64,000 bases of DNA from Eledone cirrhosa (Eukaryota), in the NCBI GenBank assembly GCA_964016885.1, contig OZ024743.1, positions 70,556,001 to 70,620,000 of the forward strand, written 5' to 3'. Position 1 is the first letter of the stretch. Each line of letters begins with the position of its first letter. The notes beneath the pieces are model-generated. The model was not told the DNA's origin. It searched no databases and saw only the letters and a program-made list of their open reading frames with translations. The translations under genes and the position numbers were made by a program. Below, piece after piece: positions 5,764-57,230 of this stretch.

Positions 5764-5787
5764 GTGCCTTTTCTCTTCACCACCAAC

Positions 5788-8700
5788 ATGGCTATGCTAA
5801 GAGTAGGCTGTTTAAATGCGCGTGGCCTGGGCTCAACTTGGAAGCAAGCAATGCTTCTAAATGACCTCAGGTCACAGCGTATAAATGTGATGGTTATTTG
5901 CGAGGCCCGGATCAGCAACGTGCGACAGCTGGCCCCCACCTTTGATGACTTTGAGATGCACGCATCTCTCTGTCAGCCCGGAGGTGGGGGTGGAGTTGTC
6001 GTTCTGCTGCAAAAACATCTGGGTCTCGCAACACAGATTGTACATTTGGACCCGGAGGGTCGACTAGTGGTTCTGGACCTTGGCAGTGGTAAAGGCGGAG
6101 CGTTTAGGTTGGTAGCCGCCTACGGCCCTTTCGGGTCAATGCGGCCGGACTTCTTCCATCGTCTGGAGACTTTTCTAGGGACGTCCCGCTCCTTGCTATT
6201 AGTGGGGGACTGGAATGGTATCCTAGATGCACGCTGGGACTACGTAGGGGCCTGCCCCGATAGAGAGGGGTGTAATAGCCTCAAAGGGTTAATCGGTCGA
6301 TTTGACCTGGCCGATAGATATCGACTAGATTTTCCGACTGCGCCAACCTGGACTTGGGCAAATCGTAGCGGATCATCTAGGTCGTACCTAGATAGGTTCT
6401 TAGTTAGAATTAAGGATAAGGACTTTTTAAGTTGTCCAAAACTGCGCATGGTTGGCTATTCAGACCACAAATTGGTGACCTGCATGGTCAACCTTGACAG
6501 AACTCATAGACAGGGCCCCGGTTACTGGAAGCTCAACTTGTCCTTGCCGGCAAGTAGAGCCTACAGGAATCGGATTAGTACGTTAGTTAAGGAACGGTTG
6601 ACTGGAGCGATCGTCAACAGCAGGTGGTGGGTATCTCTAAAGAGAGAGATTAGAGTAGTCTCGATAGAATTTAGTAAGGTTCTAGCTGCGGATAGGAATA
6701 GGAAGGAAAGGGAGCTAATAGATAGAGTAGAAGAGGCAATTAGAAGCGGCGACGTGACCAGAGTGCTAGCGTCGAGAACGGCTTTGGGCCAGTTTTTCGA
6801 CGCGAAGCACGAAGGCTGCGTTGTCCGAAGTAAAATACGTGCTCTAGGGAACGAGGGGACCAAAGCTGTTAGCTGGGCCCGCGTGACAGAGGCCAACAGT
6901 GGAACTAAATCCACCATCCGGTCTTTGCGAGACCTGGATGGACGGGCGATTCTTGACTCTAAGCAGATGTGTGAGGCCTTTCAAAGGCACTTTGCCCAAC
7001 TGTTCGGGAGGGGCGGGGAGCCGGTTGGGAACGTGGACTTCGGTCCATACCTCGACGGCCTGCCGCGCCTCTCGGACAGGGAGGCGAAGTCCTGCGAGGA
7101 GCCGATTTCGGCCGCTGAGATAGAGGACGTGCTGAGCCAATGCGGCAAACGCAAATCCCCGGGTCTCGATGGTCTTCCTTACGAATTATATCTAGATATG
7201 CCGGACTTGTTCCCTGATCTCCTCGAGGCGGTCTACTGCAACTGGCAACAGAACGGGAGAATTCCCTGTACTGTGACCAAGGGCGTAGTCACGCTAGTGA
7301 GGAAGGACGAGAACAAGGGGGACGAAATAAGTAACTTCAGGCCCATAACTCTGCTAAATACAGAGTTACAGATTTTGGCCAAGGTGCTAGCAAAGAGGTT
7401 GGCGCTTGTCGTGGGCAACCTGGTGGGAGATGCGCAGACATGCGCTATCCCGTCCAGGTCCATCCATGACAACCTCCACCTCATGCGATACATCATAGAG
7501 AGGGTTGGGAACGAACCCGGCTTTGGTGGGGCTCTGATCAACTTGGATCAATCTAAGGCGTTCGATAGGGTCGACCATGGTTACCTGGATGCGGTGCTAG
7601 CGGCGGCAGACTTCGGACCCGTTTTCAGGGGCTGGATCACTGCTATGCACAGCAGCCGCATCTGCTCTAGGGTCAAGGTGAACGGCTACCTCTCGGAGCC
7701 GTTCAAAATCGCGCGGTCCATCCGACAAGGGTGCCCTCTCTCCTCCCTTCTGTATGTGTTGACTCTCGAGCCACTACTGCGGAAGTTGGAGTTGTTGCAG
7801 GGCATCCCTTTGGAACCGGGATTGAGGAAAGCGGTGTCGGCCTACGCCGATGACGTGACAGTAATGGTGTCGACGGCCTCCGAAATCGAGGCGGTCGGCA
7901 CCTTACTGGAGGAGTACGAAAAGTTCACAGGGGCTAAGCTGAACCGGGACAAGTCGATCGGTTTGCAACTCGGCACGTGGAGGGGCAGACCGATGCCCTC
8001 CGATGGCGTCGTCGGACGCTGGACGGAGGGCCCGGTGAAGTTGCTCGGGGTCTGGTTCGGACCGGACCTCCAGGTGGAGAAAAACTGGGCGGAGGTTACG
8101 AACAGGGTGTTTGCACTGACCCAGAAGTGGGCCAGTTGCAAACTATCCCTGAAAGGTCGGGCGGAGGTGGCGAACACCTACATAGCGTCCGTCATCTACT
8201 ACCGCCTGACCGTAGTGCCCTGCCCAAGGGAAACCCTCACCAATATGGAGCGCGCGCTCTTCCAATTCCTTTGGAAGAGGCGGGCTCCTCTGGTGAGGAG
8301 ATCCATCTGCTGTCAACACCCTTCGAAAGGAGGGCTGGAGATGCCGTGGCTAATGATGCGTAAACACGCATTAAGGCTACGGCACCTCTACGTATTCCTC
8401 ACCGGACAACCGGTGTGGGCCTCGTTTGTGAGACGAACCTTTCCCAGACTCGTCTCACTCACCGAGCTGCAATCCTGTGTCAAGCAAAGACCGAGAAAAC
8501 TGGGCGCCTGGCACACTGAGTGTGCTCAGGCGCTCACCGCCCTCTGGCAGGCGGATCCGGTTATCAGTGGAGACTCCACCGCAACATTCTATAGAGGGCT
8601 GGTACGCAGCAGGTGCGACGACGCCCTCGGAGAAGCCCTAGACATGAAGGAGGACGAACTGGCCAGCCTGTTCGGTAGGACATTCAGCCCGGGACCTATG

Positions 8701-9225
8701 GACAACTTCCAGAAGTCCCTGGCCTGGCAGTGCTACCGAGGAGCTTTACCCGTTCGAGAAAGGCTCTACAGACACGGGCGCCCGGGTAGGGACCCCGCCA
8801 AAAAGATCTGTCCCAGATGCGTGTGCGACGAGGAAACCGTTGCACACGCATTGGTACACTGCTCGGGCGTAGCCGATCTGTGGGGCTATGTCGAACAACT
8901 GCTGTCAAGGGTGGGACCGATCCGGTTGACCACCGAGTCTATTGTAATGATCAAGCCGCCTCCCCCCTTCAAAGATGAAGCAGAGGCGGTGTTTCTGTGC
9001 GTAATAGCCATGGCGAAAGAGGTTGTATGGTGGATGCGTCTGAAAGGACTGAGGTCAGGCACCTTTCTCTCTGGCCAACAACTGGTCCGTTTCTTCCGAT
9101 ATCATTTCGGAAGAAGGATCAGGATGGAGAGAGAGGTGCTGCACCCCAGTCGTTTTTATGAAAGGTGGGTGAAAGTGGCGAGAATGGCCCGTGTGAATGG
9201 GCCTTCTCTTTACATGAGCCTGTAG
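5788..9225 (+). CDS. LINE ORF2: APE endonuclease, reverse transcriptase, CCHC zinc knuckle (intact, 1145 aa from ATG 5788)
   Basis: CLNARGL, LVGDWNG, SYLDRFL, YSDHKLV; KSPGLDGLPYE, NFRPITLLN, LDQSKAFDRVDH, IRQGCPLS, AYADDVT; CPRC..EETVAHALVHC. Kozak-like CCAACATGG. Confidence 0.95.
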   Translation: MAMLRVGCLNARGLGSTWKQAMLLNDLRSQRINVMVICEARISNVRQLAPTFDDFEMHASLCQPGGGGGVVVLLQKHLGLATQIVHLDPEGRLVVLDLGSGKGGAFRLVAAYGPFGSMRPDFFHRLETFLGTSRSLLLVGDWNGILDARWDYVGACPDREGCNSLKGLIGRFDLADRYRLDFPTAPTWTWANRSGSSRSYLDRFLVRIKDKDFLSCPKLRMVGYSDHKLVTCMVNLDRTHRQGPGYWKLNLSLPASRAYRNRISTLVKERLTGAIVNSRWWVSLKREIRVVSIEFSKVLAADRNRKERELIDRVEEAIRSGDVTRVLASRTALGQFFDAKHEGCVVRSKIRALGNEGTKAVSWARVTEANSGTKSTIRSLRDLDGRAILDSKQMCEAFQRHFAQLFGRGGEPVGNVDFGPYLDGLPRLSDREAKSCEEPISAAEIEDVLSQCGKRKSPGLDGLPYELYLDMPDLFPDLLEAVYCNWQQNGRIPCTVTKGVVTLVRKDENKGDEISNFRPITLLNTELQILAKVLAKRLALVVGNLVGDAQTCAIPSRSIHDNLHLMRYIIERVGNEPGFGGALINLDQSKAFDRVDHGYLDAVLAAADFGPVFRGWITAMHSSRICSRVKVNGYLSEPFKIARSIRQGCPLSSLLYVLTLEPLLRKLELLQGIPLEPGLRKAVSAYADDVTVMVSTASEIEAVGTLLEEYEKFTGAKLNRDKSIGLQLGTWRGRPMPSDGVVGRWTEGPVKLLGVWFGPDLQVEKNWAEVTNRVFALTQKWASCKLSLKGRAEVANTYIASVIYYRLTVVPCPRETLTNMERALFQFLWKRRAPLVRRSICCQHPSKGGLEMPWLMMRKHALRLRHLYVFLTGQPVWASFVRRTFPRLVSLTELQSCVKQRPRKLGAWHTECAQALTALWQADPVISGDSTATFYRGLVRSRCDDALGEALDMKEDELASLFGRTFSPGPMDNFQKSLAWQCYRGALPVRERLYRHGRPGRDPAKKICPRCVCDEETVAHALVHCSGVADLWGYVEQLLSRVGPIRLTTESIVMIKPPPPFKDEAEAVFLCVIAMAKEVVWWMRLKGLRSGTFLSGQQLVRFFRYHFGRRIRMEREVLHPSRFYERWVKVARMARVNGPSLYMSL

Positions 9226-18466: not shown

Positions 18467-21400
18467 GATTTCATTTATTGGCCACAATGGCCGACATATA
18501 GGGGACAATACAAAAGACTGGGACAGTGGGGTTTTACAGAAAAATCGAGTAAACAATATGAATAAACAAAGTAACAATAAAGTAACAAGAAAATTACAAC
18601 AAGAAAACATTCCCCAATAGGGGGGATGACCACCTAGGGTTCGCTCAGGTACCCCACCAGTCCTGAACGACCCGACGCTTCGAGAGAACCCTGGAAGGGC
18701 ACCCCTCTCCTCTTCAAATTTACCTACCTACAGCCGCATGACCAGAGTAGGTCCACTCACACGGGCCATTCTCGCCACATTCACCCACCTTTCAGCAAAT
18801 GTACTGGGGGGCAGCACTTCTCTCTCCACCCTCACCTTCCTTTCCAAGTGAAACTTGAAAAAGTTGATGAGGGATTGGCCGAAGAGAAAAGTGTCTGTCT
18901 TCACTCCTTTCAACCTCGTCCATCATACAACCTCTTTCGCTACTGCCACCAGACAGAGGGAAATTACCTGCCCTTCCTGGCCAAAAGAAGGCGGCGGGTC
19001 GATCTTCACTATGGACTCGGCCGATAGCCGGATCCGTTCTACACGCGACAACAGCTGTTCAACATAACTCCACAAGTCAGTAATGCACGGACACTGGACG
19101 AGTGCGTGCAGAACGGTTTCGTCGCTCTGCGCGCATCTCGGGCAGGTCCGTCTGACAGCACTTCCTTCCATGTAGAATTTATCTCGAACCGGTAGTGCCC
19201 CCCGGTAGCACTGCCAAGCGAGGGATTTTTGGAAATTATCCATCGTCCCCGGCTCGAAAGTCCTCCGGTACAGACTGGTTAGTTCGACTTCGTTGACTCC
19301 CAGAGCCTCTCCGAGTGCGTCGTCGCACTTGCCCACCACTAATCCTCTATAGAACTCGAGAGTGGAAGTTCCACTGACCGCATTGCCCGCCTGGTAGAGG
19401 GCAGTGAGTGCCTGGCAACATTCCAGATGCCAGTCACCCAGTCTCGGTCTCTTCTTGACCCAGGACTGCAACTCAGTCAAAGAAACGAGCTGCGGAAAGG
19501 CCCGTCTGACAAACGGCGACCACACCTGTTCACCGTTTAGGCCGAATATCTGGAGATGCCGCAGGCTCAGCGCGTGCCTGCGCATCATTAGCCACGGCAT
19601 GCCCAGCCCTCCACGTAGAGGGTGCTGGCAGCAGATGGACCGCCTCACCAGCGGAACCTGACCCCTCCACAAGAATTTGAAGAGGAGCCGCTCCAAGATG
19701 GCGAGGCGCGAACGGGGGCAAGGGACGACAGTCAGACGGTAGTAGATGGCGGACGCGATGTACGCGTTCGCCACCTCCGCCCGACCTTTCAGTGATAGCT
19801 TCATCCCAGCCCATTTCTGGGTGAGACTGACTACCCTGCCCGTCACCTCGTCCAAATTCTTATCCACCTGGAGGTCTGACCCGAACCAAACCCCTAGCAA
19901 CTTTACCGGTCCGTCCGTCCAGCGCCTAACGACGCTGTTGGACGGCATGGACTTTCCTCTCCAGGTGCCGAGTTGCAAGCCTACTGACTTTTCCGGGTTA
20001 AGTTTTGCTCCTGTCAACCTTTCATATTCCTCCAATAAGTTGCCGACCACCTCGATTTCTGAGGTGTCCGACACCATCACGGTGTCCGCATAAGCCTACA
20101 CAGCCTTTCCGCGTCCCGGTTCGAGCGGGATGCCCTGCAACATCTCCAGCTTCCGCAGTAAAGGCTCGAGAGTCAATACGTACAGAAGGGAGGAGAGAGG
20201 GCACCCTTGACGGACCGATCGGGAGATCTGAAACGGTTCCGAGAGGTGGCCATTACTTTTTACCATCGAGCAGGTGCCGCTGTGCATTACAGCGATCCAG
20301 CTTCTGAAGACGGGGCCGAAGCCAGCCGCCTTGAGGACAGCCTCCAGGTACCGATGGTCGACCCTATCGAATGCTTTCGATTGATCTAAATTGATCAGAG
20401 CCCCACCGAAGCCAGGTTTACACCCTACCCTCTCTATCATGTATCGCATTAGGTGGAGGTTGTCGTGTATGGACCTGGTTGGGGTTGCGCAAGTTTGCGC
20501 CTCCCCAACCAAATCCCCGACGACAAGCGCCAACCTCTTTGCTAACACCCTGGCCAAAATCTTAAACTCTGTGTTGAGCAGAGTTATGGGCCTGAAATTG
20601 TCTAATGTGTCCCTCTTGTTCTCGTCTTTCCTTATCAGCGTCACTACGCCCCGGCTCACAGAACTGGGAATACTCCCGTTTTGCTGCCAGTTGCAGTAGA
20701 GCGCTTCGAGGAGATTGGAGAACAAGTCTGGCATATTTACGTAAAGCTCGTAGGGAAGACCATCCAAACCGGGTGACTTGCGCCTCATGCAGCCTACAAG
20801 GGCATCCTGAATCTCGGCTGAAGTAATTGGCCTTTCGCAGCGCCCAGCGTCAGCCGTCGAGAGTTGCGGCAAGCCTTCGAGGTAGGGACTGAAGTCCGCC
20901 ACCATCTCTGACCCGCCACTTCCCCCGAACAACCGAGCAAAATGTTGGCGAAAGGCCTCACACATCCTCTTAGAATCGCTCAGCTCGAGCCCGTCTCGGT
21001 CCGTCAAAGACCGAATCGTGGTTTTATTACCACGCTGCGCCTCTGCCACGCGGGCCCATCGAACAGCTTTGGTTCCTTCGTTTCTCAGAGCACGCGCCTT
21101 AGCTCTGACAATGCAACCTTCGTGTTTCGCATTGAAAAAATGGTCTAATGTCATTCTCGCCGCTAGCACATCAGTTGCAATGCCACTACCAATAGCCTCG
21201 TCTAACTTATCTACCAACTCTCCCTCCTTTCTATTTTTCTCTAATGCTACTTCTTTGCTAAACTCTATCGACATTACTCTAATCTCTCTTTTGAGAGCCC
21301 CCCACCATCTATTGTTGACGACTCACCTGTCAACTTTTTCTTAACTAAATTGTTGACCTGGTCCCTGTAAGCCTTACGTGCCGGAAATGACATGTTTAGC

Positions 21401-26286: not shown

Positions 26287-26818
26287 TATATATATATATA
26301 CACAGAGGTATCCACTGTAAGTTGTGGGGTCTATTCTGTATGAAGAACTTTATATTATATATTCAAAATCTGAGCAGGTGTGACATGGAAAGATATAGGA
26401 CAAACACGAACACGAACATGAGCTATTTGCTGAAGATCACAGTTGTTTCGGTTCTTGAGAAACAGTATCATTCTTCCCATTGCACCAGTGATAGCAACAC
26501 AAGAGGTGACTGCAACATGGAAAAATACAATATAACGAGGTTTTTTCAGATAAACATTATAGAACGTATACGTATAAAACAGAATGCTTCACAATGAAAC
26601 AGAAGGGTGTGACAACGTGTTAGGGTGGGAATTTACCCAACAGGAAATTGAGAGCACAATACATGAATAAGTGATTTCGTACGTTAGTCTAGTGAAGTGG
26701 ATACTTGTTGTCTGCTGGCATACCAGGAAAGAGTGAGCAACCGAAACTGCACCAATGTGTATACAAATATGCACATTCTTAATATGTAGGTATATAAGCT
26801 TGTATATATATATATATA

Positions 26819-27579: not shown

Positions 27580-28959
<1,380 letters not shown>

Positions 28960-28961
28960 TT

Positions 28962-29686
28962 AAATATTCTCATATTTATGTTTGTATTGTAAATGACCAA
29001 GTTAGCTAGATAGGCAAACTGTAATATTATTATTAGTATATTTCTATCTAGCTAACTTGGTCATTTACAATACAAACATAAATATGAGAATATTTGTGTT
29101 TATCAAATATATTGATTTGTGTTAACCTATATTACACGGCTCAGAAATACTCTTTCTTTCTTCGAGCTATTTCATTGTAAATGATCGCCTGAGATTTGAA
29201 CTCATTATTATTGATTTTTCACTGCTCCTTCGTTGAGCTGATTTTAGCCCCATACAAACGGCTGTTATTTGTAGCAGCACGAGTATGAGGCTAGCTAGAC
29301 ACTGGATAACCGCATGAGGTTACCTCGTGTGCTAAACAGTCTTCCTAAATATTTTGAAGTGGAACATACCAATTTTTATAGTGCTTGCTGAGGAGATCAA
29401 AATGCGGTATTTTCTTCCACTTTTTCATTATTCGAAACATATTTGGATTTTAAGGTTTAAACCTGTCTACGGAACAGGTTTGATTTTGAAATTTAAATTT
29501 GTCCAAGCACTACGGCCATTGCCAGTACAATTTGTTTTTGTTGATTTATGATGTATTATCTTAAGTCATGATAGGCAAACTGTAATATTATTACTAGTAT
29601 ATTTCTATCTAGCTAACTTGGTCATTTACAATACAAACATAAATATGAGAATATTTGTGTTTATCAAATATATTGATTTGTGTTAA

Positions 29687-32018: not shown

Positions 32019-32145
32019 GGTACACAGAGTCTAAGTTTCCCTAGTGTGATTATCTCTCACTATTTTAGTACTTACAAGGCTCGACGCCACTTAACTTCGA
32101 TGATCGGCCGAGTACTGTTGCTTTCAACGTGATATAGCCTTAAAC
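32019..32145 (-). pseudogene. Degenerate 5S rRNA-derived sequence
   Basis: Minus strand GTTTAAGGCTATATCACGTTGAAAGCA..CTCGGCCGATCATCGAAGTTAAG..CGTCGAGCC..AGTACT..GGGAAAC..CTGTGTACC then a T-run parallels metazoan 5S rRNA, with many substitutions and an insertion. Confidence 0.75.
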
Positions 32146-41943: not shown

Positions 41944-41948
<5 letters not shown>

Positions 41949-42340
41949 TAGTCCTTCATCAGTGATCTTCCAACCATCATTGGTATTTCATCGCTTTAAA
42001 GACCATATACCTCCGGTTGGTGCGACCCACGGCTAAAAAAGGTCGTTGGGACACGTAAATAAAGGGGACAAGAGTGTAAACAAACAAAAATGGTGAAGCA
42101 ACGAAATAGAAATTTGCGACTTGACTCCTTCTTCCTCACCTTTCGTTGCTTCACCATTTTTGTTTGTTTACACTCTTGTCCCCTTTATTTACGTGTCCCA
42201 ACGACTTTTTTTAGCCGTTGCTCGCACCAACCGGAGGTATATGGTCTTTAAAGCGATGAAATACCAATGATGGTTGGAAGATCACTGATGAAGGACTAAC
42301 TTTATTCATATGTAACCCATTAGCAACCCCGCAGCACGTT

Positions 42341-42347
<7 letters not shown>
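41944..42347 (+). mobile_element. Fold-back element, family H, carrying a rearranged hammerhead
   Basis: 41944-42103 is the reverse complement of 42141-42304; flanked by (TA)n. Confidence 0.85.
42195..42296 (+). ncRNA. Putative non-circularly-permuted hammerhead ribozyme (copy 1)
   Basis: GGUA-UA^-UGGUCUU (42236-42248) ... U-GAAA-UACC (42257-42265) ... AAGAUCA-CUGAUGA-A-GGAC (42278-42296); helices covary with copies 2 and 3. Confidence 0.75.
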
Positions 42348-48230: not shown

Positions 48231-48329
<99 letters not shown>

Positions 48330-48375
48330 CTTAAAATGAGTGAGAATAAGAAGAAAGCAAGAACGGGGGGCGGGA

Positions 48376-48481
48376 GTTTTCCTCATCAGTTGTCTACTGG
48401 GCGTCTCGGATATTTCCACGCTTTAAAGACAAGATATCTACCCCTAAAGCGTTTAATAGCTGGGTAAGTTATTGGGAAAAC
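48376..48481 (-). ncRNA. Putative non-circularly-permuted hammerhead ribozyme (copy 3, most divergent), within a (TA)n-flanked element 48329-48535
   Basis: GUUUUCC..ACGCUUU..GAUA-UC^-UUGUCU..AAAGCGU-G-GAAA-UAUC..AGACAA-CUGAUGA-GGAAAAC. Confidence 0.7.
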
Positions 48482-48531
48482 GGAAGAGGGAAGGAGGGGA
48501 AATAGAAGGGAAAAGAGAATAAAAAAATATT

Positions 48532-49640: not shown

Positions 49641-49678
49641 CACTGATGATGTTGCAGATGTGCAACGAAAGAACTTTG
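49641..49678 (+). ncRNA. Minimal hammerhead, family C-related
   Basis: CA CUGAUGA U GUUGCA GAUG UGCAAC GAAA GAAC UU UG. Confidence 0.65.
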
Positions 49679-50270: not shown

Positions 50271-50350
<80 letters not shown>

Positions 50351-50351
<1 letters not shown>

Positions 50352-50985
50352 AATGCGATGAAATACCAATGATCGTTGGCAAATCACTGATGAGGGACTC
50401 GTTTTATAACATGTAATCCATGTGCAACCATGCAGTATTCTTCTCCCCATATTTTTCATATATTTACCTAAACTGCGTTTCTATGTTTCTCGCTTTCTCT
50501 CTTACTGCTCCCTCGTTCTCTCTGTTTCTCTTACTTTCTTTCGTCCCCTCTGTCATGTCAGTTAACACTTTCTCTCTACTGACCTCTTCCTCGCACTTCC
50601 ACTCACTCACTTTCTGTTTCTCCCCTTCTTACTTCCTCCCGTTCGCTACGAATCCGATTTTCCTTCTTTCTCACATCGGATTCACTAGCGAAAAGTCTGT
50701 TTCTTACACGCTCATGTATTCACCCAGTTTATGCTAACAGAATAACCATGTTGCTTGTTTTTCTTTCCATCTTCGGTTAGCTTTCCCCTGTGTTGTTTAC
50801 TTGTCTCACTCGCTTTACGCGTTTCAATTGTCCCAATAACTTATTTTAGTTATTGTCGCACCAACGTGAGGTATATGATTTTTAATGCGATTAAATACCA
50901 ATGATCGTTGGCAAATCATTGATGAGGGACTCATTTTATAACATGTAATCCATGTGCAACCATGCAGTATTCTTCTCCCCATATT

Positions 50986-50992
<7 letters not shown>
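50351..50992 (+). mobile_element. ~530 bp-unit element with ~110 bp terminal direct repeats and a rearranged hammerhead (copy 2, 50830-50930)
   Basis: 50351-50460 is repeated at 50883-50992; the upstream repeat has intact GAAA and CUGAUGA, the downstream one has UAAA and UUGAUGA; pyrimidine-rich body; (TA)n flanks. Confidence 0.82.
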
Positions 50993-54802: not shown

Positions 54803-56550
54803 CATACACACATACATACACATATAGACACACACACACACATATACACACACACATACATTAATAACAATAATAATAATAATAATAATAACGACAACAA
54901 CAATAATAATATACATATACATATATATATACACACACGCACACACATAAGCATATCTATACACACACACGATAGCAACTAACAGCGCTGCGATCGAATG
55001 TGGCTTTTTAGCCCAGCCAATGATCTAAAATGTCTTGCACAGAGTCGGCAACCAAAACATTCACTGGGAATAGTCGGCTGTGGTTGGAGTTCGTGTACTT
55101 TTGCATGTCGCTTGAGCCCTCCTGCTAATTTACATTCTCTACCACATGTTTGGCAAGCATGATGAGTAGCATCTCCAACAGCAGCCTGGTAGTCAACCAC
55201 TGGTCTTACTTTATGACTGCGAAGATGACTTTCGAGTCCAGTTTGCTTAGGCGGAGTCTCGCACAGACGCTGCATGTCAGCACCATAGGAGGACCCTCGC
55301 CGTCTGGAAGTGCAACAGCAATGCCCTTCCTCACATCCCGCTTTACTTTCTCGTATGCGATTCGAGATGCCTCAAAGGCAACTTTTCCCTCATATACAGT
55401 CTTTCTCCATTTATTACGATCAGCAGCAATATTTTCCCATGTATCAGCAGAGATGTTAGCGTCTTTCAGAGAGGCTTTCAAGGAATCCTTATACCTCTTT
55501 TTTGGTTTATGTGGCGGTCATTTTCCTTTAACCAACTCTCCATAAAAGAGTTGTTTTGGTATTCTAGAATCCTTCATCCTGGCAAGGTGACCACTCCAAC
55601 GGAGTCGTTGCTTAAGCACAAGAGCTTCTATACTGTCACACAGAGCTTTCCAAAATCTCGACATCACTGATGTGGTCCCTCCAGTGAACGCCATGGATCC
55701 GTCTGAGACACATCTGATGGAAACGCTCCAATTGCTTAAGGTGGTGTCGATATGTGACCCAGGTCTCGCAGGCATAAAGAAGACAAGAGAGCACACATGC
55801 CCTGTACACCTTTACCTTTGTCCTCCTGCATATGTCTCGCCGACCCCAGAGTCGCCTTTCTAGCTTTCCGAAAGCATCACTTGCTTTCCTAATCCTAAGT
55901 GAGATTTCACTGTCAAGGTTGCTGTTTCGATTGACAGTGCTTCCCAGGTAGACAAACTGATCAACCACTCCAAGTCGTTTGCCATACACATAGATGTTTG
56001 GTTCAGTGTACTGCTTACCAGGAGCAGGTTGGTACATGACGACGGTTTTCTTGAGACTGACAGTCAATCCTAGGGCAGTGCAAGCGTCAGAAAATGCATT
56101 CAAAATGTGCTGCATATCACTCTCTGTGTGCGCTACAAGATCGCAATCATCTGCATACAAGAGGTCTCTTATGATTGATGTAAATACTTTTGTCTTCGCA
56201 GCAAAGCGCCTGATGTTAAATATGCTGCCTGAGGTTCGATATCGGATGTAAACACCATGCTCGCAATTCCTGAATGCAATACAGAAAACCATTGCAAAGT
56301 ATATAGCAAACAGGGTCGGTGCTGGAATATCCCCCTGTTTCTCTCCATTTTTTACTGACATAGGCTCCGACATGTTACCTCCGACATTAACCCAAGCCTT
56401 CATGTCGTCATGGAAAGACCTAACTAAAGCAAGGAACTTATCAGGGCAACCAAGTTTCTGGAGAACCTTCCATAATGCATCTCTGTTAACAGTATCGAAA
56501 GCTTTTGTCAGATCGACAAAAACCTGATACAGATCCAAGCCTTGTTCCAT
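54670..56550 (-). mobile_element. 5'-truncated RTE (BovB-like) LINE with C-terminal C2H2 zinc fingers and (GTAT)n tail
   Basis: [57 protein letters not shown]; CQTCGREC..GLKRHAKVH and CRLCARHFRSLAGLKSH; 3'UTR split by microsatellites at 54713-54965. Confidence 0.9.
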
Positions 56551-56619
56551 GCATACATACATACATACATACATACATACATACATACATACATACATAC
56601 ATACATACATACATACATA

Positions 56620-57230
56620 CATGGTGGCTGCCAACTCGTTTTCGAGTACGGCCACTGCTTTATATCCATGTAGGAGAACCCCTACCGATGCGCTGAACGA
56701 GTGTGACTTTTTAGTCCAGCCAGTGACTTGAAAACTCTGGTACAAACACTACACTTGTGACAATTATTGACACATAGTGCTGGGCCCATGGTACCATGTG
56801 ATGACAAGTGCAGAGAGATCTCCAGATATTAAGCAATGCCTGTGCCGTGAAGCTTTTATAGTGAGCAAAGGCACTGCACAAAGCCAGTCCCACTCTCTTA
56901 ACCAAGATGATATTTACCAAAAGGAAGAACAAGTCAACATCATTGGATACCATCAGGATTGCAGGTGGTATATCAAAGTTTTCCTTCTCCTAGAATTCTG
57001 CCTTGACAAAGGCTAATGGGTCACCTCTCCCGGTGATTTTGGATGGCCATTGACTCTTAAGAGCTCCTTTGCCCTTTGACAGGTTTTGTTTTTAGTCCTG
57101 CAGGATGTCCAAAGTTACCCTCCTCACCAAGAAACCTTGGTGGGGTTGCCAGTTTAGTCGCCAACGACCCGACCATGGAACAGATTGTACTGGAATACAT
57201 GTTACCAGTAGCACCAACTGGTGACCTGAC
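56620..57230 (-). mobile_element. ~600 bp non-coding RTE-derived retroposon, with (GTAT)n on both sides
   Basis: Copy of 26819-27410; 3' end CTCGAAAACGAGTTGGCAGCCACCAT(GTAT)n parallels the LINE tail CTCGATAACGAGGGGGCAGCCATCAT(GTAT)n. Confidence 0.78.

Follow-up and report, generated by a model that had tools for sequence, protein, structure and literature searches.

The window, i.e. the whole stretch of 64,000 nucleotides that was analysed, contains copies of a hammerhead-type RNA in which, to judge from the letters, six helices surround an invariant catalytic core and a contiguous stem II is missing. This RNA is probably a hammerhead of the block order S-G-C with a chain that starts and ends within the core, at the step from A9 to position 10.1, and it is carried by units that may derive from Naiad Penelope-like elements (PLEs). 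A wider reading, for which the chances are about even, is that it represents an active wiring beyond the six block permutations, with a multi-helix junction for the link between A9 and 10.1, and that much of the Naiad clade (cnidarians, molluscs, crustaceans and nematodes) has in it and in type CSG the ribozyme that seemed to be missing. An earlier reading of the DNA, made from the sequence only, had proposed a pseudoknotted, non-circularly permuted hammerhead-type RNA, and the order S-G-C with two pseudoknots bears this out.

Wiring of the RNA and its copies in the window

Twelve strands pair into six helices in the order IIa-5', hairpin P, IIb-5', X-5', III-5', U-H, I-5', a linker of 2-5 nt, IIb-3', GAAA, III-3', X-3', I-3', CUGAnGA and IIa-3'. 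In copy 1 (42195..42296, plus strand), which belongs to family W1, has an intact core and scores 112 bits with a window-type covariance model (R1), the 5' strand of the tether helix IIa (42195..42198) pairs with 42293-42296, right after CUGAUGA-A (85% paired, a value for the alignment of 12 families described below, as are the percentages that follow). Hairpin P (42199..42220; 42199-42203/42216-42220, 93% paired) lies between this tether strand and the displaced 5' strand of stem II (IIb; 42222..42225), whose partner at 42253-42256 precedes U-GAAA (87.5% paired). The 5' strand of helix X (42227..42232) pairs with 42272-42277 (94% paired, with double changes in five of the six pairs). Block S (42236..42247) consists of a stem III strand, the triplet AUA and a stem I strand, block G (42253..42265) of the 3' strand of stem II, GAAA and the 3' strand of stem III, and the split block C (42279..42296) of the 3' strand of stem I, CUGAUGA and the 3' strand of IIa, all on the plus strand. 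Stem III is formed by 42236-42240/42261-42265 and stem I by 42242-42247/42279-42284; CUGAUGA occupies 42285-42291, and H17, after which the cut is predicted, is A42241.

Copy 4, a full motif at 41951-42052 (minus strand), is the inverted partner of copy 1. Copy 3 (48376..48481, minus strand; family W3) has an intact core and mismatches in hairpin P and helix X, and its predicted cut lies after C48433 (H17 on the minus strand). Copy 2 (50830..50930, plus strand; family W2) has a perfectly paired junction; G12>U and C3>U turn its core words into UAAA and UUGAUGA, and it is predicted to be inactive, the majority of family W2 being intact. Of the three copies claimed from the sequence alone (copies 1 to 3), all keep the layout and the one at 50830..50930 loses its core, while copy 4 and a partial, 5'-truncated fifth copy at about 50350-50403 are additional. 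The motifs and helices described at that time were all recovered in place; two more covarying helices, hairpin P and helix X, had been missed. A weak match to model R1 at 26406-26510 (minus strand; 13.7 bits, E 0.3) is possibly a decayed copy.

CUGAnGA and GAAA, the A15.1-U16.1 pair and an H17 other than G are all present, copy 2 of the window failing individually. In all 14 parsed sequences (nine family consensi and five metagenome Naiad copies) the NUH triplet is found, and stems I and III pair in the standard register, as chosen by the parser, in 70/70 and 42/42 cells; on an alignment made from sequence only they are 94% and 92% paired. Stem III is 4-8 bp long.

The strand before GAAA finds its stem II partner at the 5' end of the RNA and not after CUGAUGA. 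An additional helix and a hairpin connect this 5' strand to A9, so that the opening of the chain falls within the core. In a structural scan, a contiguous stem II of at least 3 bp occurred in 0/90 distinct core matches in loci of the window's own genome, 67 of which parsed as the junction, the remainder being truncated or mutated. Pairing of the strand after A9 with the strand before G12 was at chance level (18/56 cells over four positions). Next to G12, family Y and each of the five metagenome Naiad copies have a G-C pair. This is the canonical identity G10.1-C11.1, and because of it the helix before GAAA, IIb, would be the real stem II, its partner having moved to the 5' end. Both the 10.1 and the 11.1 position hold C in family Y and three of the Naiad copies (L240, L242 and L244), each C being paired to a G of the 5' segment, and the IIa/P/IIb junction is without any unpaired base.

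The sequence-only reading had drawn a stem II of one base pair, a single A-U, which would make the RNA an ordinary type SGC hammerhead with the 5' helices as a peripheral scaffold. In the copy-1 clade such a pair is found: the base after A9 and the base before GAAA covary (A-U in 61/79 W1 copies and G-C in 9/11 W1c copies), and natural hammerheads with a 1-bp stem II exist, as stated in the available text of PMC3088659. Beyond this clade the pair does not hold, since it is C/C in family Y, L240, L242 and L244 and U/C in L248, with each base pairing with the 5' segment, and since over all 14 families and elements the direct 10.1/11.1 pair occurs in six, which is chance level (9033/20000 permutations). 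An ordinary type SGC hammerhead is therefore quite unlikely. In the opened chain, to go by the same counts, the base after A9 can pair with 11.1 in place of the 5' strand within the copy-1 clade. Two features speak against this chain: W1, W1b, W1c and F25 have a mismatch at the 5' base facing 11.1, and family W3 often has G or A at 11.1.

Helix X lies directly 3' of the 5' strand of IIb and directly 5' of the 3' strand of stem I, which is the site of the stem I-stem II helix in type SGC. By analogy it may be the clamp between stem I and stem II, joining the distal ends of the two stems.

Covariation, controls and copy number

Covariation, which had been claimed across three element families, extends to 12. 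In an alignment of 12 window-type representatives, made by MAFFT from sequence only, 91.3% of the cells are paired against 76.2% after shuffling (0/500 shuffles reached the native value), double changes are found in 24/34 pairs, and every helix has compensatory changes; slid-partner controls are 30-47% paired. A measure of further pair types on the same alignment was not significant (66/500). When five distant sequences are added, partly misaligned, the 17 sequences are 81.5% paired with double changes in 31/34 pairs, counts that do not equal independent events, the families being related. Stem III changes stepwise across subfamilies, from U-A to U-G to C-G (W1, W1c, W1b), and the core words CUGAnGA and GAAA are conserved in an alignment of 64% mean column identity. 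The junction parser picks the pairing registers, and it was tested on control 5' segments: shuffled segments matched the native score in 3/420 trials, and swapped segments reached it in 15/182, every one from sister families sharing strands. MFE folding cannot represent pseudoknots and is uninformative here; in single-strand folds stems I and II never appear together, and the z-scores are modest (-1.4 to -2.6).

In the 3.0-Gb genome of the window, TAAWGCG-NN-GAAA-N20-28-CTGANGA is matched exactly 16,999 times (8,549 + 8,450), a lower bound, as the pattern leaves out family Y among others, and its reversed control has 0 matches genome-wide. The structural scan gave three core matches in the window, against two across 30 shuffled windows. 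For chance hammerhead words amplified passively in a high-copy repeat it can be said that copy number alone is no proof, and that the loose parser accepted both of the chance cores from shuffled windows as well. Against passive amplification stand the compensatory changes in every helix, the recurrence of the motif in a matching position in Naiads from unrelated animals, and 30 chance pattern matches in viral contigs, 0 of which had the structure. The covariation largely refutes this explanation, which is hardly credible. Older families of unrelated sequence in the same genome have the same core-opened wiring (L135-L162 and L168-L197, family Y, with its fully paired junction; and L134/L140/L145).

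A search of the window with Rfam at the gathering threshold found no hammerhead, and the published SGC descriptors, in the available text of PMC10085705, require uninterrupted blocks; the earlier expectation that standard descriptors would miss the motif was thus correct. The sole Rfam match in the window is 5S rRNA-like (32019-32145, minus strand; 40 bits, just above the cut-off), a pseudogene or a 5S-derived repeat.

Carrier elements, Naiads and a possible mode of mobility

In the copies examined, the motif sits near the 3' end of non-coding, pyrimidine-rich units of about 490-710 bp. The longest ATG frames in window-type units are 32-107 aa, and an ORF with an N-terminal GIY-YIG and a C-terminal RT is absent from them. 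Copies on the same strand are spaced by 630-636 bp in W1 (14/16), 530-534 bp in W2 (6/7), 560 bp in W3, 706 bp in W4 and 487-493 bp in Y, and both orientations are present in 9/38 W1 loci. The 3' ends lie in (TA)n at about +50 (W1) or about +60 (W2) past the motif, with 11/58 W1 copies ending at +12, 38 nt earlier than the other W1 3' end, and the 5' ends are scattered among copies. W1 and W2 are young (98-99% identity among best matches); W3 and Y are older.

In the window, copy 1 stands in a 5'-truncated W1 element (42106..42346, plus strand; 98% to the 635-bp tandem unit) that ends in (TA)n about 50 nt past the motif. Copy 4 stands in the inverted partner of this element (41946..42106, minus strand), which is without the tail of about 38 nt and has an altered hairpin P. 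Copy 2 and the partial fifth copy belong to a W2 element of one 530-bp unit (50350..50990, plus strand), with (TA)n on its flanks, which starts some 7 nt past the cut predicted upstream; copy 3 belongs to a 5'-truncated W3 element (48327..48524, minus strand; 90% to the 560-bp unit) between (TA)n runs. All the insertion hallmarks of PLEs are present, namely tandem and inverted copies, 5' truncation, a fixed 3' end with an optional tail, and a microsatellite target. An optional tail of 30-40 bp has been described for Penelope-like insertions (PMC8557442, in its available text; PMC11167929). The tandem and inverted units, the (TA)n targets and the Penelope-type tail support the spread by Penelope-type mobile elements that had been suggested for the motif, and the 490-710 bp units may be non-autonomous, retrozyme-like derivatives.

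Neighbouring PLE ORFs (L131, L132, L164 and L166) were rejected as the source, as they had inserted separately into the same (TA)n arrays. Those of Neptune-like type (L131 and L132) carry their own type I hammerhead in their 3' UTRs, and two canonical type I-like cores in the window, at 49643 (plus strand) and 30433 (minus strand), match these 3' UTRs. An abundant intact 775-aa PLE family with a C-terminal endonuclease showed no SGC motif in 3/3 3' UTRs examined. This family (L281-L283), whose endonuclease is a GIY-YIG, has a type I-like hammerhead about 1.1 kb past the stop codon; the first core segment of that hammerhead is altered, and its helix III is palindromic. A further short element inserted in (TA)n (L026, L027, L132 and L160), in which a GAAA core is followed by a palindromic helix, resembles the dimer-type type I hammerhead. 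Apart from PLEs, the window holds at 5764-9225 (plus strand) a 1153-aa frame with APE-type endonuclease, RT and zf-RVT, apparently the intact ORF2 of an L1/Tx1-type LINE, and broken relatives of it at 18923-21322, 27978-29051 and 55636-56748.

Naiads have been reported to be without a canonical hammerhead, although 10 'HHR_core' and 8 'HHR_half_core' cases were flagged (PMC8557442, in its available text). Read by eye, the core-opened wiring is clear in at least nine of the 54 published Naiad consensi, i.e. three from Acropora, one from a hydrozoan and two from box jellyfish (entries named by file order), Naiad_EuTe from a clam shrimp, and two from Octopus; it is uncertain in those of Beroe and Euprymna. 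At least six other consensi, including three from Nippostrongylus, read by eye as type CSG with stem II intact. Neither wiring was seen in the inspected passages of the bivalve and hemichordate consensi, which cover them incompletely, so that not all Naiads would carry the motif. Inspection covered 50/62 places of CTGATGA and, for three other cores, the first 10 of 23, 43 and 25, and line breaks in the consensus file may hide further core words. The Octopus motifs agree by eye with family W2 letter for letter in the unpaired loop of hairpin P and in the internal loop between III and X, which suggests common descent and would also point to a cephalopod as the source of the window.

Sixteen metagenome loci were drawn by the Naiad RT motif, and three of them show the N-terminal GIY-YIG that defines Naiads. 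The core-opened form is found in the 3' UTRs of five (L240, L242, L243, L244 and L248), two of which (L242 and L243) have the ORF with N-terminal GIY-YIG and C-terminal RT, and type CSG in the 3' UTRs of three (L237, L246 and L247). There was no motif in the 3' UTRs of L239, L241 and L249; L238 is degenerate, L250 is ambiguous, and three loci are without a 3' UTR. In the CSG motifs of L237, L246 and L247, CUGAnGA and the cut site are 30-42 nt apart, more than the descriptor allows as given in the available text of PMC10085705. Among the five core-opened Naiad motifs, model R1 finds only L243 (E 0.022) and misses four; it also finds two distant copies in the window's own genome, and L148 is among its matches (E 0.006). 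Naiads and the window families thus appear to share the wiring with weak sequence similarity, and it is chiefly the Octopus consensi, as read by eye, that speak for kinship in sequence.

The Naiad coding copies found in the window's genome are all decayed, the best matches having stops or short frames; no frame among the 152 listed matches exceeds 298 aa. No recognisable motif was found behind 12 decayed Naiad RT remnants of this genome, two DNA patterns for the Naiad RT motif had 0 matches in it, and a pattern for the Octopus Naiad ribozyme had seven degenerate matches, none with a linked ORF. Protein searches with a local GIY-YIG domain gave only PLEs with C-terminal endonuclease. By its place in the metagenome and published Naiads, the motif would be the 3'-UTR ribozyme of one branch of Naiad PLEs, and the core-opened and CSG forms probably explain the puzzling 'HHR half core' cases in Craig et al. 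2021 (PMC8557442, available text). This would offer an answer to why Naiads seemed to be without the hammerhead of PLEs.

Hammerheads cleave by a Mg2+-assisted attack by the 2'-OH of H17, with G12 as general base and the 2'-OH of G8 as acid; the products end in a 2',3'-cyclic phosphate and a 5'-OH. The RNA would be a member of the non-circular (SGC/CSG/GCS) class, opened between A9 and position 10.1 and arranged as tether strand, hairpin P, stem II strand and X strand, followed by S and G and then by X', I', CUGAnGA and tether strand'; the tether helix and the hairpin would form an insertion where type-SGC ribozymes tolerate one extra U. In copy 1 the attacking group would be the 2'-OH of A42241 as H17, with the standard chemistry. 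By analogy, self-cleavage after H17 is probable for the forms with a perfect junction, and somewhat less so for W1. More tentatively, tandem transcripts may be cut once per unit and might circularise as in type I retrozymes (PMC7229834, available text). A PLE protein acting in trans would then copy uncut multimers or circles into (TA)n, with reverse transcription beginning at a fixed internal site some 110 nt beyond the cut. Insertions have their 3' ends at about this distance (110 nt) from the cut and extend more than 600 nt upstream of it, so the template must be an uncut multimer or a circle. A result that speaks against cleavage is that 16/147 copies run through an upstream intact ribozyme. 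If the wiring is as proposed, four helices (tether, stem II, X and stem III; about 20 bp) would hold the two ends of a cut monomer together, in place of stem I alone, so that re-ligation should be favoured. The form could then favour self-ligation into circles, the templates for tandem insertions, and circles could let the elements outlive their autonomous parent.

It is also conceivable, if rather unlikely, that a conserved fold does not cleave autonomously, and needs a PLE protein or a second RNA, or serves mainly as a binding signal for the PLE protein. Metazoan PLE hammerheads cleave poorly in vitro, according to the available text of PMC4209133, and in the lizard PLE PAc the hammerhead cleaves with the help of the protein, while insertion in vitro does not require this cleavage (PMC11167929). 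The families with 10.1/11.1 mismatches are young and abundant, and 5' ends show no accumulation where the cut is predicted, with three within 8 nt of the upstream site against 2.9 expected and 0 at the own site. On the other hand, the catalytic letters and the NUH triplet are conserved across families and phyla, while the helices vary freely, and a stem III of 4-8 bp makes a dimer unnecessary, unlike the minimal type I forms; both speak for a ribozyme cleaving by itself. Two other figures on the 5' ends were discarded: a very small P for ends near the cut was an artefact of a reference beginning at the cut site, and 7/73 5' ends falling within 20 nt past the upstream site (P ~0.014) are not evidence, the periodic reference double-counting and the bin being post hoc.

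Comparison with known hammerheads and retrozymes

The order that the sequence-only reading had called C-B-A is indeed non-circular and no permutation of types I, II and III, whose cyclic order is C-G-S against S-G-C here, but it is not new, being that of the published type SGC (Eckert et al. 2023; PMC10085705). According to the available text of that paper, the published layouts are six block orders, type SGC comprises 583 examples from metatranscriptomes and none from the genome of a known organism, type CSG two unique sequences from soil metagenomes, and types SGC and CSG cleave in vitro. The authors assume there that blocks cannot be interrupted, and their descriptors require it.

To the extent that this text describes them, the window form shares with type SGC (HRIMA-1 and its variants) the block order, two pseudoknots, the full core, the short stem I-stem II linker (here 2-5 nt) and a helix joining the distal ends (X). 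In type SGC, however, the stem II strand directly follows CUGAUGA(U), whereas here it has its place at the 5' end, with the gap taken up by the tether helix and the hairpin: two helices are inserted where HRIMA-1 has one extra U (descriptor CUGAUGAUG), and the uninterrupted block C of type SGC (I'-CUGAnGA-stem II strand, with at most 1-2 inserted nt) is absent. Type SGC is metatranscriptomic, whereas the window form is genomic, animal and borne by a retroelement. With type CSG, as portrayed in the same text, it shares a stem II strand upstream of block S and a contiguous S-linker-G; in type CSG, I'-CUGAnGA precedes the stem II strand, whereas it stands at the 3' end of the window form, which in its apparent pairing is type CSG circularly permuted at the A9/10.1 junction.

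What is new here is the split block C, the opening of the chain at A9/10.1 and the host context, i.e. animal Naiad-type elements; the scrambled order was already known. In the literature covered, outside of which most subscription journals lie, there was no rearranged hammerhead in animals or Naiads, no hammerhead opened at A9/10.1 and no tested precedent for inserting two helices at this point. As far as their available text goes, Perreault et al. 2011 (PMC3088659) describe 1-bp and mismatched stem II starts and core insertions of 1-2 nt, not inserted helices, and Forgia et al. 2023 and PMC13725137 have nothing on a core-opened form; PMC13725137 mentions 'HHR variants containing additional helices' via its ref. 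13, which may bear on novelty. A split block C that covaries and is present in high copy would extend the list of six orders, which is built on unsplit blocks, and A9/10.1 would accept whole helices, possibly as an insertion site for engineered switches. Non-circular hammerheads, known only from host-less environmental sequence, would now be tied to a named clade of animal retroelements.

The carriers share with Naiad PLEs the (TA)n targeting, the tandem and inverted structures and the tail of 30-40 bp, and the same RNA is found at the 3' end of several Naiad consensi, those labelled HHR_core or HHR_half_core included; in contrast to Naiads, the window elements are without an ORF, and the Naiad paper assigns no structure to the RNA in its available text (PMC8557442). 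Non-LTR retrozymes likewise consist of tandem units that are non-coding, measure a few hundred bp and hold one hammerhead each, and those of animals derive from terminal repeats of PLEs, but their hammerheads are of type I and were found by type I descriptors (PMC7229834; 10.64898/2026.07.22.740005, both in their available text). The 2026 preprint on retrozymes uses type I models only in the text available (Li, Clavereau, Pollet; 10.64898/2026.07.22.740005), and with about 17,000 exact-pattern copies in one genome, surveys of retrozymes by type I descriptors would miss whole families. The window units differ from retrozymes in their rearranged form, their length of 490-710 bp and their link to Naiads. 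As with the type I hammerheads of PLE pseudo-LTRs, the motif lies near the 3' end of the element; the available text of PMC4209133 describes those as dimer-dependent three-way junctions with a weak helix III, whereas the window form has a pseudoknotted topology and a stable stem III.
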